The position numbers and the translations under genes are program-made. A model generated the notes under the pieces. The model was given only the letters and a program-made list of their open reading frames with translations. It did not search any database and was not told where the DNA came from. Positions 52,388 through 63,230 of a stretch of DNA of 64,000 nt are shown piece after piece. Each line of letters begins with the position of its first letter. Positions within the stretch are counted from its first letter, which is position 1. Source of the stretch: a virus; the IMG/VR virus record IMGVR_UViG_3300042429_001107; one strand, given 5' to 3'.

Positions 52388-52987
52388 ATGAGAAACATCA
52401 AAGAATATAGAGATTTCTGTATTAATGAATCTGAAGAATTATTCTTTAGCAGACACTTAGGAAATGATGCTAAGACATATGGTGATAGGGCTAAAAATCA
52501 TTATAACCTACCTGAAGATGCTAGTATATTACAAAAAACTCAAAGGTTCTTTGGGTACATCGAAGACAAGCTAAACAATATTGCACAAGCAGGACAAGAT
52601 ATAACAAGACAAAATAGAGCTGTTAGAGGCGGGGGTTTAAATACTGGATATGAAATGTTATTCGGTCTTCCGGCTATTGTACCAGGAGTACTTAAAAGAG
52701 TATTCGGACCTACTAAATATGAGATTTCTAAAAGAGTACCAGCTAAGGATGAAGATGTAGATGTTGAGTTCATGAGACACACAAATGAGGATTTTGCTAA
52801 AAATGAACTACCGAACATTAAAACTGAGCAACAATTAGAAGATAATATCACCGAGCTTTATCAAAAAGCTCAGGTTAATAAAGGACAGGTACCTGCTCTA
52901 GATGATATAGGAATGAATAGAGCTTACCTTTATTATACAAAACAAAAAAATCCTAATCAACCTATATTCCAACCAAATAACGCATAA
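52388..52987 (+). CDS. Hypothetical protein with capsid-targeting-like N-terminus
   Basis: Starts MRNIKEYRDFCINES. Confidence 0.6.
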   Translation: MRNIKEYRDFCINESEELFFSRHLGNDAKTYGDRAKNHYNLPEDASILQKTQRFFGYIEDKLNNIAQAGQDITRQNRAVRGGGLNTGYEMLFGLPAIVPGVLKRVFGPTKYEISKRVPAKDEDVDVEFMRHTNEDFAKNELPNIKTEQQLEDNITELYQKAQVNKGQVPALDDIGMNRAYLYYTKQKNPNQPIFQPNNA

Positions 52988-52991
52988 AAAA

Positions 52992-53744
52992 ATGAAAAAA
53001 TTCTCTTTAGTAATAGAAAAGAAAAGACAAGACTTAAAAGAAGCAGAACTTGTAACTGAAAGAAATCAGTATTTAGATTTCTCTAAGAAGTACAATAAAG
53101 AACATGGTGTTTCTGGACCTTTTGATAAAAAATTCAAAGGTGATGAAAAATCACAGGAAGAGTACATGCAAGGTCTTTCAATGGCTTGGGACGAGTACAA
53201 GAAAAAGAAAGGTATTAAACTTAAATCTAATAGCAAAGACTTTGCTTTCAAAAAGAAAATGAATGAGTCTAAATCTTCTGATATGGCTAAGCAGATGATC
53301 GGTGATGGCGGAGATCCTAACTATCATTTTGTTACTATGTGTGACGATTACATGTTTGAGAAAGAAGATGCTATGATGAATTATAGTAAAGAGCCAATGT
53401 CTGCTCCTTTAAAGATCAAAACCACACCGGATTTTGGAATCTATACATTCGGTCCTTTTATGAATATAGAAGAATCAAAAATGTTTGCTGAAAGCATCGA
53501 ATTAGATGAGATCAACGGACCAAGAATGGTAACTATACAAGACAGAAAAAATGGTGAAGTATTCTCTAAATTCTTATCATGTAAAATGCAACCAGTTTGG
53601 GACGAGCATATTGAAGAGCATGTAGGAAGCATGGAAGATGAAGAAGACGAAGAAGAGGAAGAAGATCCTAACATGGAATACACTTATGGTGATGAAGATG
53701 AAGGTACTGACGATGTAGTTTACGATGAGGATGAGGAGGAATAA
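52992..53744 (+). CDS. Hypothetical protein with highly acidic C-terminus (internal head protein candidate)
   Basis: MKKFSLVIE start; LKEA, VTER and MNES sites; poly-Glu/Asp tail. Confidence 0.55.
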   Translation: MKKFSLVIEKKRQDLKEAELVTERNQYLDFSKKYNKEHGVSGPFDKKFKGDEKSQEEYMQGLSMAWDEYKKKKGIKLKSNSKDFAFKKKMNESKSSDMAKQMIGDGGDPNYHFVTMCDDYMFEKEDAMMNYSKEPMSAPLKIKTTPDFGIYTFGPFMNIEESKMFAESIELDEINGPRMVTIQDRKNGEVFSKFLSCKMQPVWDEHIEEHVGSMEDEEDEEEEEDPNMEYTYGDEDEGTDDVVYDEDEEE

Positions 53745-53746
53745 AA

Positions 53747-54193
53747 ATGATGAATCAATTACAAAGTCAAGCTCTATATCCAGTACTGCAACACTATACT
53801 GGTGAAAAGATAACTTCAATATCTGTTCTTGATGATCATAATCTTATTTTTAATACTTTCATTGGTGATGATGGTTTTGTTAATCAGAACACAGATGGAG
53901 ATTGGGAAATAATAATAGAAAACAAAATTGTCTATACAATAGAGAAGGATGTTTTTGAGGTTCTTGTAAAACCAAGTAGAAAAAGTTCATTAGAGAATTA
54001 CGTTGGTATTCTTAATGATCTTTTTAATGATAAAAAAATAAGCAATAGATCAAGGATATTGGTTTTTAATATCCTCCTATTTCTAGAAGAATATATAATA
54101 AACTCAGACTTTCTTCCAAAGAAGAATTTAAGAGTTGGTCCTTTTAGTATTTTTAATTACAAGGGGAATAAATTTGTTTACTGTTTAAATTAA
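53747..54193 (+). CDS. Hypothetical protein
   Basis: ORF with 2-3-nt gaps to its neighbours. Confidence 0.5.
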   Translation: MMNQLQSQALYPVLQHYTGEKITSISVLDDHNLIFNTFIGDDGFVNQNTDGDWEIIIENKIVYTIEKDVFEVLVKPSRKSSLENYVGILNDLFNDKKISNRSRILVFNILLFLEEYIINSDFLPKKNLRVGPFSIFNYKGNKFVYCLN

Positions 54194-54196
54194 AAA

Positions 54197-61531: not shown

Positions 61532-61870
61532 ATGCCAGCAGTTTCTAAGACACAGCAAAGATTAATGGGACAGGCTTACGGAGTCAGAAAATTTATGGAT
61601 ACTAACGGTAAAGATGGTATTGATCCCGATAGTATAAAATCTGCTTATAGACAAACTATTGTTGAGCTAGCAAGTAATATGAAGAAGAAATCTTTAAAGG
61701 ATTTTGCTTCAACCAAACATAATAAATTACCAGAGGAAGTTGAAGAGGGAGAAATTCCTGCAATATATAATTATCTTAAACCTGAATCTAATAAACCAGG
61801 CAAAAAATCTAAATCTTCCAAGATGTCAAATCTTGCAGATTATAGAGAATTTATATCTAATAAAAAATAA
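61532..61870 (+). CDS. DUF3008-like protein with C-terminal tag-like motif
   Basis: MPAVSKTQQRLMG..LKDFASTKH.KLPE; ends NLADYREFISNKK. Confidence 0.6.
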   Translation: MPAVSKTQQRLMGQAYGVRKFMDTNGKDGIDPDSIKSAYRQTIVELASNMKKKSLKDFASTKHNKLPEEVEEGEIPAIYNYLKPESNKPGKKSKSSKMSNLADYREFISNKK

Positions 61871-61873
61871 AAT

Positions 61874-62347
61874 ATGGAAGAAGTAAACGAAGATTGTGGA
61901 TGTGGTGGTACAACTGACAACATCAGAAGTTTTAATACTAATAGTACACCTAGATACTCTCAAGATCCTTTAGTTGGTAGAAGAGTTAGTCTAAGAGACG
62001 GTAGAAGTGGATTAGTTGATGATTCGATTAGAAACAATACAGGAGAAGTAATAGGATATGTAATTGAAGGCGATAGAGGTAACTACAGAGTCTTTAAAGA
62101 TAAAATAGTTGGTCCAATGGAAGAAAGTGGAGGTGCAATGGCATCTTTATCTAGTACACCAGGAATGGGAGATGTGATTCCCCCTGGACCAGGAAGAACA
62201 GGATCTGGTGATCAATTCCCTTCATTAACTGTGGGAACACCTGCAGCTGGAAAGAAAAAGAAAAAGAAAGATTCTAATAAGAATCCTCTTGATTCATCTG
62301 TGATGGATTATAAAAGCTTTCTTACTAATTCAAAAAAGAATCAATAA
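61874..62347 (+). CDS. Hypothetical protein (SH3/KOW-like core, C-terminal tag-like motif)
   Basis: VNEDCGCGG start; VGRRVSL..GRSGLV; ends VMDYKSFLTN. Confidence 0.5.
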   Translation: MEEVNEDCGCGGTTDNIRSFNTNSTPRYSQDPLVGRRVSLRDGRSGLVDDSIRNNTGEVIGYVIEGDRGNYRVFKDKIVGPMEESGGAMASLSSTPGMGDVIPPGPGRTGSGDQFPSLTVGTPAAGKKKKKKDSNKNPLDSSVMDYKSFLTNSKKNQ

Positions 62348-62348
62348 G

Positions 62349-62930
62349 ATGAATCATATACGATCATTTAGAAGTCTTTTTGAAGGAGTAAGTGCAGTAA
62401 CAACTAATTGGTATATTGTAGATAACGAAGCTTCTTTTGATAAGATAAAAGGTAATGGATATATGCTTTTTAGCCAGGTAGGCATAATGACTATCGTTTA
62501 TGTTAAACCTAAAGTAGAGGAAGAAGCTAGATTGGATTTTTATTTTGATAAAGCAAAATCACCAGATAAGAAAAGCATTTGTGTTTGTAAGATAATAGCT
62601 AATGACGGTAAAGTTAGGAGCTCTAAAAATTTTGATGATGTAACTACAGATAATGTTTGGGACATAACAGCTACGTTTTTTGATTATTGTGATTTAGAGA
62701 AGTCTGAAAAATCAATTAGAGATAAATTCATGATGGGATATTCTAAGACAATAAAGGATATCTTTAAAGGTGATACAGAAAGAATACCCGGATCATTTAA
62801 AACATATTTGAATTATATGAAAGAATGGGCAAAGAAATCTATAGAGGGTGTTTCTTTAGATAAGAATGAAGATAATTACGATTTCCGAGAGATGATTAAA
62901 GAATTTATTGCTTTCTTTAAAAAATCATAA
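62349..62930 (+). CDS. Hypothetical protein with capsid-targeting-like N-terminus
   Basis: Starts MNHIRSFRSLFEG. Confidence 0.55.
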   Translation: MNHIRSFRSLFEGVSAVTTNWYIVDNEASFDKIKGNGYMLFSQVGIMTIVYVKPKVEEEARLDFYFDKAKSPDKKSICVCKIIANDGKVRSSKNFDDVTTDNVWDITATFFDYCDLEKSEKSIRDKFMMGYSKTIKDIFKGDTERIPGSFKTYLNYMKEWAKKSIEGVSLDKNEDNYDFREMIKEFIAFFKKS

Positions 62931-63230
62931 TTTTTCTTTCTGTCTCAATTGGATAAGATAATTTTCCCAGATTGATCCTCCTTCTTTTATACCAGGTTTA
63001 GCGCTCTTGTGTAACTTAGCTCTTTGTGACATTATATACGATGCTATAATAGCATCTTTTAATTCTATTTCTTTTTTATCCAACATTTCTTGTAATCTTC
63101 TTATTGATTTTAGAGCTTCGTCCCTATTTGCAAATCTTAATCCTTTAGGATAGCTTTGTCCTGAGTCGAAAGGTTTAATATCATTTAGATAAATCTGTTC
63201 GAATAATTTGAAGGTTAGAATTTTTTTCAC
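62925..63230 (-). CDS. Hypothetical protein with capsid-targeting-like N-terminus (GTG start)
   Basis: Starts MKKILTFKLFEQ; GAATATATA lies 4 nt upstream on the minus strand (63235-63243). Confidence 0.6.
   Translation of the reverse strand: MKKILTFKLFEQIYLNDIKPFDSGQSYPKGLRFANRDEALKSIRRLQEMLDKKEIELKDAIIASYIMSQRAKLHKSAKPGIKEGGSIWENYLIQLRQKEKL

Follow-up and report, generated by a model that had tools for sequence, protein, structure and literature searches.

Why should proteins with otherwise unrelated sequences begin with nearly the same short peptide? The question is raised by a 64,000-nt stretch of viral DNA (hereafter the window; bases 56162–120161 of one 123,769-bp viral contig, IMG/VR record IMGVR_UViG_3300042429_001107), in which a cluster of open reading frames (ORFs) carries an N-terminal tag of 11–17 residues with the consensus M-K/R-x-I-x-x-F/Y-x-x-F-hydrophobic-x-E, followed by S or G. 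An initial annotation had likened this peptide to the capsid-targeting sequence (CTS) of phage T4 and proposed that it loads proteins into the head for injection into the host. From the sequences and by analogy with T4, it is probable that the shared peptide is a T4-type capsid-targeting propeptide, i.e. that the proteins bearing it are targeted to the head and processed by the head protease. Injection of the cargo as effectors is the weakest step of that initial reading.

Coordinates refer to the window or, where marked genome or L001, to the whole 124-kb fragment, which has a G+C content of about 31% and a completeness of 45% (CheckV). Its capsid protein is nearest to those of uncultured huge phages and Lak megaphages (37–42% identity) and about 30% identical to its counterparts in Tenacibaculum PTm1 and in Flavobacterium, Chryseobacterium and Sphingomonas jumbo phages; the source is an uncultured large T4-related phage. 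Window positions 1–47,000 hold baseplate and fibre genes (gp5-like hub, gp6-like wedge, tail fibre), a primase and a helicase follow, and the tagged cluster lies between the helicase and the DNA polymerase. A megablast search of the cluster against the phage collection returned no match.

The shared N-terminal tag

All eleven N-termini quoted in the initial annotation were found where they had been placed, the one at 63230 (−) with a GTG start; the peptide given for 26134 (−) is present, but begins at an internal Met of an ORF that starts at 26155. Across the fragment, a regular expression for the tag matched 15 of 118 N-termini as compared with 1.6–2.4% of internal windows, and 500 residue shuffles gave on average 3.6 matches and never more than 9. 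Likewise, with a position matrix (peaks: F/Y at −3, F/W at 0 and E at +3) 20 of the 118 N-termini scored above the 99th percentile of the internal-window null, where 1.2 were expected, and 13 exceeded the null maximum; this matrix was trained on relatives, orthologues included, and is not fully independent. The motif that the initial annotation had wanted searched for genome-wide is thus enriched at N-termini by both measures. The tagged genes of the window are given below with their matrix scores and the pattern kept by orthologues; GATATATA is a promoter-like motif treated further on.

Matrix-positive genes:
16309–16662, +: 117-aa protein in the baseplate region, tag MKNLIEYNSFLLE then S; score 18.3; phrog_3666, function unknown
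26145–27665, −: 506-aa protein, tag MKRIKSFNDFIDSNVNE then GIFS; score 13.9
52388–52987, +: 199-aa ORFan, tag MRNIKEYRDFCINE then S; score 21.0; orthologues retain Y/F-x-x-F-C/I/A-x-NE then S; GATATATA 21 nt upstream
56240–57076, +: DUF2201_N HExxH metallopeptidase half (PF13203, 2.2e-23), tag MKKILSFKDFSLYE then Y; score 25.3; orthologues W/F-x-x-F-x-L-F-E
58108–59697, +: MoxR-type AAA+ ATPase (Pfam AAA_5), tag MKKIYNFKEFVNE then S, with a second site, VDE then G; GATATATA 26 nt upstream
59990–60523, +: 177-aa protein, tag MKHIKLFENFLNE then D; score 27.4; GATATATA 5 nt upstream
60516–60833, +: 105-aa protein, tag MINNILSYDEFILE then S, the copy nearest to T4 TYQEFIAE; score 25.1; orthologues [YF]-x-[ED]-F-[IV]-[NT]-E-S
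62925–63230, −: 101-aa protein with a GTG start, tag MKKILTFKLFE then Q; score 15.5; orthologues conserved

Genes with weaker matrix scores:
18842–19087, +: 81-aa ORF, weak tag MDKQSWYEFIE then S
25862–26155, −: 97-aa ORF, weak tag from an internal Met (MINLKTYKKF), no Glu site; score 9.3
59701–59973, +: 90-aa ORF, short tag of T4 length, MKKFSEIME then G; orthologues MKK[FY]S.I[KL]EG
62349–62930, +: 193-aa protein, tag MNHIRSFRSLFE then G; score 5.3; orthologues F/Y-x-x-L/Y-F/x-E

Beyond the window, tags occur mostly near head genes (genome 11339, 12090, 19452, 20326, 20634, 21194, 26704(−), 27373(−), 27626(−) and 28816). The tagged total comes to about 20–23 in this 45%-complete fragment, and tags are borne by about one-sixth to one-tenth of the genes (~8–17% of ORFs); the initial estimate of about a dozen cargos fits the window, but is too low for the phage. 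Non-ATG starts were noted in two tagged genes, L001:11339 (TTG) and window 63230(−) (GTG), with the encoded tag retained in both.

Outside the tag these proteins have little in common. BLASTP (E ≤ 1e-3) with the residues beyond 25 of 23 tagged proteins detected no similarity among themselves or to other proteins of the fragment, which bears out the earlier view of the tag as a module on unrelated ORFs, and the isoelectric points of the mature tagged proteins showed no bias. Baseplate, fibre, replication and glycan-island proteins scored at background, and the earlier remark that baseplate, fibre and replication proteins lack a full copy holds. In the AlphaFold2 (AF2) model of the 59990 protein (predicted local distance difference test, pLDDT, 83), residues 1–3 and 13–18 fall below 50 and a globular domain begins at about residue 21; as modelled, the tag and its putative cut site are unstructured ahead of that domain. 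Fold matches to the model were GNAT-like but weak: Foldseek E-values were no better than 4e-3 and VIA Z-scores no higher than 6.8, those for GNAT-type acyltransferases, phage Mu Mom and AcrVA5 being 5.4–6.8, too weak to assign a function. The model of the 52388 protein was poor (pLDDT 53). A second common element, NEG-[IVF]-[FLM]-S, was seen after the tag in three unrelated families (window 58108, window 26145(−) and L001:19452); it may mark the true cut site together with the primed-side residues.

The promoter-like motif is represented in the cluster by the following feature:
52360–52367, +: GATATATA; other + strand copies in the window at 15076, 28434, 40721, 58075, 59978 and 61306

In sheer number the motif is not enriched (8 copies, 9.5 expected). 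Its placement is non-random: of the 22 copies in the fragment, 16 precede a start on the same strand by no more than 60 nt (P ~1e-20). Directly behind it stand the protease/capsid operon, some tail genes, including a fibre gene, and seven tagged genes, most of the other tagged genes being reached through their operons; within the fragment it is missing from replication and glycan genes. The earlier statement that many tagged genes stand behind a late motif therefore holds as regards position and the motif shared with the protease/capsid operon, whereas the label 'late' is inferred from the genes that the motif accompanies. A copy also precedes a homing-endonuclease-like gene (phrog_3339, 9.6e-20; window 15100–16305) within the baseplate module.

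Prohead protease, scaffold and the shared putative cleavage motif

A T4-type reading of the tag implies a gp21-like protease, which the initial annotation had proposed to look for elsewhere in the genome. It was found at genome 14643–16679, where a 678-aa ORF encodes an S77 (gp21-family) protease domain fused to a long scaffold (Peptidase_S77 PF03420, 5.5e-11, 42.8 bits against a cut-off of 27; phrog_207, 1.4e-38). Across 17 protease orthologues H73 (within ELDHP) and S128/S129 (within ISISSRAAG) never vary, and they are the putative catalytic residues. The scaffold contains about twelve tandem 14-residue repeats (YLAENLDKNISYSE), the number of which differs among relatives. The next gene encodes a Gp23-type capsid protein (PF07068, 4.4e-40; phmmer to 6uzc and other gp23 chains, 1.6e-6). 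No match to the portal profile PF07230 was obtained in the fragment, nor in the control genomes, so that the negative carries no weight. An 843-aa tagged protein encoded upstream of the protease has no similarity to the PTm1 portal.

The end of the tag recurs in these head proteins. In a proteome of 40,053 aa the strict motif [LIVFMC]NE[SGD] is found at 22 places, of which five are in the protease-scaffold (one immediately behind the protease domain, the other four in the scaffold's C-terminal part), one is in the capsid protein (residue 41), and seven are at positions 11–27 of tagged proteins. SLNE followed by SAGAY is invariant in 74 capsid orthologues, and in the variable C-terminal scaffold the sites N190-E191-S192, LIES, ALNE, SLNE and (L/I)NES rank with the most conserved columns. 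Distant protease orthologues also bear an N-terminal ..LNE then N. The remaining tags end in hydrophobic-x-E, then S or G. As read from these sequences, the tag end follows the gp21 rule of L/I-x-E plus a small residue, with a preference of this clade for Asn at P2. The capsid N-terminus, W-x-P-I-I-E-S, resembles W-K-P-L-L-E-G of T4 gp23.

The tag among relatives and in other phages

The tag pattern is retained in orthologues down to 25–35% identity across more than 100 related viral contigs. Related loci were collected with an alignment query, which gave 41, a single-protein query having recovered one near-identical contig only. For the MoxR ATPase 263 homologues were found, and among the 120 listed M-(G)-K-R-I-x-N-F-x-E-F-V-N-E-S/G is retained almost throughout, at identities as low as 31%; all are metagenomic, on contigs of up to 399 kb. 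In 80 related loci, six tagged head-module families keep the pattern at 25–60% body identity despite residue changes, and two untagged control families never acquired it. The families of the window cluster likewise retain the pattern, down to 25–40% identity. At the level of whole loci, 127 of 1012 ORFs were tagged in 40 loci around MoxR homologues, as compared with 0.86% of internal-Met windows, and a 248-kb, 85%-complete relative had 29 tags in 340 ORFs against a background of 1.2%.

The tag also appears to come and go. In the family of window 61356 some orthologues carry it and others have a basic stretch in its place, and distant forms of the 56240 peptidase fused to the von Willebrand factor A (vWA) domain are untagged; together these point to gain and loss of the tag as a module. 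One relative contig (L114, the same as L087) carries a second, paralogous MoxR/peptidase/vWA set amid five further tagged ORFs.

The T4 CTS (Mullaney & Black 1996; PMC9026906, PMC3012670), found on IPI, IPII, IPIII and Alt, is likewise an N-terminal tag of 10–19 residues on unrelated proteins. Its residues 4 and 7 are needed for targeting and its residues 8 and 10 for processing, and the gp21 motif is L/I-x-E (PMC9026906). In the T4 record, IPIII and IPII start MKTYQEFIAE then A, and IPI starts MKTFKEF...ITE then A, so that the record and the review (PMC9026906) agree with the CTS layout that the initial annotation had cited. Like T4, the present system has a pair of aromatic or hydrophobic residues spaced three apart, with hydrophobic-x-Glu and a small residue after them, and its genome encodes a scaffold core, a gp23-type capsid protein and a gp21-family protease that carry the same putative cleavage motif. 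It differs in that the tag, with the consensus M-K-x-I-x-x-F-x-x-F-hydrophobic-N-E, is 3–5 residues longer, the same elements standing in the same order three residues further in. Moreover, the tagged share stated above contrasts with 4–5 tagged proteins in T4, the cargo includes 500–840-aa proteins and enzyme families, and the protease is fused to the scaffold. The internal-protein loci of T4 are hypervariable, whereas those described here are conserved and syntenic. Forms intermediate to the T4 CTS were found in MKYIQTYKDFLIES from a 462-kb uncultured phage and in MKTYREFIKEN, which is nearly the T4 sequence, at the start of a 131-aa ORF (L123:11511–11906, −) of a relative with 27% G+C. The T4 literature already describes internal proteins as diverse cargo with only the CTS in common, and given this precedent the present set would be an expansion of a known mechanism rather than a new one.

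The giant phages phiKZ, 201phi2-1 and SPN3US (Thomas, Black and co-workers; PMC5694885, PMC10052503) likewise have many conserved inner-head proteins that are cut after Glu by a gp21-related protease, a protease that also cuts its own C-terminal part, and propeptides with several sites. Their propeptides, however, are mostly 80–250 residues long with no shared short tag, the motif is S/A/G-x-E or A-x-E, and no gp22-like scaffold is recognisable. In phage P1 an N-terminal signal on DarB (PMC9024508) is likewise enough to load a large enzyme, as well as reporters, into a myovirus head for delivery; this is a single known cargo in a stepwise Dar pathway, with neither a shared tag family nor a link to a Glu-specific protease site. 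The MoxR-vWA-peptidase domains occur in the same neighbourhood in group 2.2 jumbo phages, for which Iyer et al. 2021 (PMC7824862) proposed that they serve as a chaperone of virion assembly and carry out peptidolytic processing. By comparison, the peptidase and vWA parts are separate genes here, and the tags on MoxR and peptidase are a feature that the cited study does not mention.

Among cultured phages, no tag family was seen in the head region of the Tenacibaculum phage PTm1 apart from the capsid protein's N-terminal region. The 125-kb flavobacterial Maribacter phage Molly (Molly_1, NC_062751.1) has an S77 protease-scaffold and a lineage-specific N-terminal tag of its own, ..LK.L[VI]E then S, on at least eight proteins, among them the counterpart of the nucleotidyltransferase-like protein that is tagged here. 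Sites of the form hydrophobic-x-E followed by S or A abound in its scaffold and near the N-terminus of its capsid protein. Molly is a possible laboratory model. Literature searches brought up no account of a comparably enlarged set of tags in uncultured phages.

Proposed head loading, its alternatives and neighbouring genes

In the scheme that we infer, binding, cleavage, packaging and, for some cargo, ejection would follow one another. Tagged proteins would be made alongside the head proteins from GATATATA-headed operons, and the first half of the tag, M-K/R-x-I/L-x-x-F/Y-x-x-F/W/Y, would dock them on the prohead core by analogy with residues 4 and 7 of the T4 CTS, the core being presumably the scaffold part of the protease-scaffold fusion. 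Having entered the core before the gp23-type shell closes, they would meet the S77 prohead protease, for which the second half of the tag (hydrophobic-x-E then S/G, often hydrophobic-N-E) is the predicted cutting site. The same enzyme would free itself after its protease domain (INE then S, residue 191), chop the scaffold at 4–5 conserved sites, remove 44 residues from the N-terminus of the capsid protein by a cut at the invariant SLNE then S, and release each cargo from its tag, leaving the mature proteins in the head with the DNA. In T4, Asp in place of the Glu at the site prevents processing, whereas targeting persists. Part of the cargo is then probably ejected into the host, like the T4 internal proteins and the ejection proteins of phiKZ and SPN3US. 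For the MoxR ATPase, and for the HExxH peptidase and its vWA partner, the place of action may instead be the maturing head; given the syntenic cluster and the proposed role of this set as an assembly chaperone, some members may work in the head and not in the host.

Several observations weigh against this scheme. Cleavage of the capsid protein at residue 44, as proposed, would fall about 27 residues upstream of the equivalent of the T4 mature N-terminus, as placed by a weak phmmer alignment. The bodies of the cargo proteins contain one cut site where 7.4 are expected, a depletion that on a per-family basis (0.09 against 0.98 expected) is not significant and is not used as evidence. The MoxR homologues of the nearest cultured phages align only from about residue 140 and lack the tagged N-terminal domain, and the tags at 25862(−), 59701 and 62349 are weak or have no clean Glu site. 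Finally, the window cluster is a conserved syntenic core module with the same content and order across relatives, which fits structural or assembly roles as well as injected effectors. A predicted complex of scaffold residues 195–678 with MoxR residues 1–40 had a score of 0.00, which speaks neither for nor against binding.

The conserved content and order of the cluster, the chaperone proposal of Iyer et al. 2021 (PMC7824862) and the many tagged genes that flank the protease and capsid genes are also what one would expect if the tags served head assembly alone, as propeptides of core or scaffold accessories and maturation factors that are not delivered to the host. We regard this as unlikely, although it is the strongest competitor, and give the same low weight to its corollary that the tagged proteins are later degraded, expelled or retained as inner-head parts. 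Tags on at least 20 unrelated families, including small basic or acidic ORFans and enzyme-like folds, exceed known scaffold needs, and the proteins that carry such propeptides in T4 and SPN3US remain in the head, many of them being ejected. A recognition leader for an enzyme or chaperone other than the capsid machinery, such as a radical-SAM maturase or the MoxR-vWA-peptidase set itself, is considerably less probable still. Radical-SAM genes do occur in three of five large relatives, but PF04055 has no match in the present fragment (~20 tags, 45% complete) or in the closest 85%- and 81%-complete relatives, with the control positive in 14 of 14 genomes. Furthermore, the motif that ends the tag is common to the capsid protein and the scaffold, and MoxR and the peptidase are themselves tagged.

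Even smaller is the probability that the N-terminal likeness has nothing to do with sorting, and stems instead from the mRNA or the start of translation in an AT-rich genome, from a recombination cassette, or from an amphipathic helix that binds membranes. In favour of such readings, AT-rich genomes often have MKK-type starts, and the tag hydrophobics stand at i and i+3. At residues common to pairs of tags, however, codons were identical in 170 of 332 cases against 181.7 expected from codon usage; identity not above expectation means that the likeness resides in the peptide and not in duplicated DNA or an mRNA element. The enrichment concerns spaced aromatics and Glu rather than Lys codons alone, and the pattern persists at 25–35% identity. 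Nor do the tags resemble Sec/Tat or lipoprotein signals, being too short and too charged: in place of an uninterrupted hydrophobic core of ~7–15 residues, the tag sequences are interrupted by K/R/D/E/N every 2–3 residues and end by residues 9–23.

Under a capsid-targeting propeptide, the most far-reaching version would make the tag a general zip code for the head in a widespread, uncultured clade of freshwater phages of ~250–430 kb, with at least a tenth of the proteome loaded, the scaffold repeats as docking sites, and C-terminal tag cores (see below) as an uncleaved second address. Its cargo would comprise a complete MoxR-vWA-metallopeptidase machine, a nucleotidyltransferase-like enzyme and a GNAT-like protein. 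Both the address and this cargo list are put forward tentatively, as possible but doubtful extensions. Were they true, the tag by itself would suffice to predict which proteins uncultured giant phages package and inject.

Capsid contents that are injected ahead of gene expression are known for few cultured models, namely T4, P1, phiKZ and SPN3US. If an address ends in the site of the phage's own protease, the packaged proteome of uncultured phages would become readable from sequence. Dozens of ORFans would then be flagged as candidate host-takeover or anti-defence proteins, and the MoxR-vWA-peptidase machine would be placed inside the prohead. Natural tag variants would also become available for protein delivery in Bacteroidota-type hosts. 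The T4 literature had already put forward the CTS as an evolutionary loading device for diverse proteins; the present case would be its largest documented use.

Untagged neighbours in the cluster include the following:
54197–56230, +: 677-aa protein with a cytidylyltransferase-like C-terminal end, internal FNE then S at residue 438 and a conserved C-terminal LFNEF
57086–58069, +: vWA-like DUF2201 half (PF09967, 1.2e-18), partner of the tagged peptidase
61532–61870 and 61874–62347, +: two ORFs ending in tag-core-like motifs, ..DYREFISNKK* and ..DYKSFLTNSKKNQ*

The C-terminal motifs ..DYREFISNKK*, ..DYKSFLTNSKKNQ and ..LFNEFVKEIQES.. are conserved in 16, 22 and about 14 orthologues of the 61532, 61874 and 54197 families, respectively, and may be a second, C-terminal class of the same address. 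An untagged protein of a further locus (L002:6704–7360, −) likewise ends in a tag-core-like motif. At window 52992–53744 lies a gene for a 250-aa protein whose C-terminal tail is rich in Asp and Glu and extremely acidic, and which contains KKKMNE then S internally, at residue 90. Both features are retained in its orthologues, and the protein could have a long propeptide or be DNA-mimic-like.

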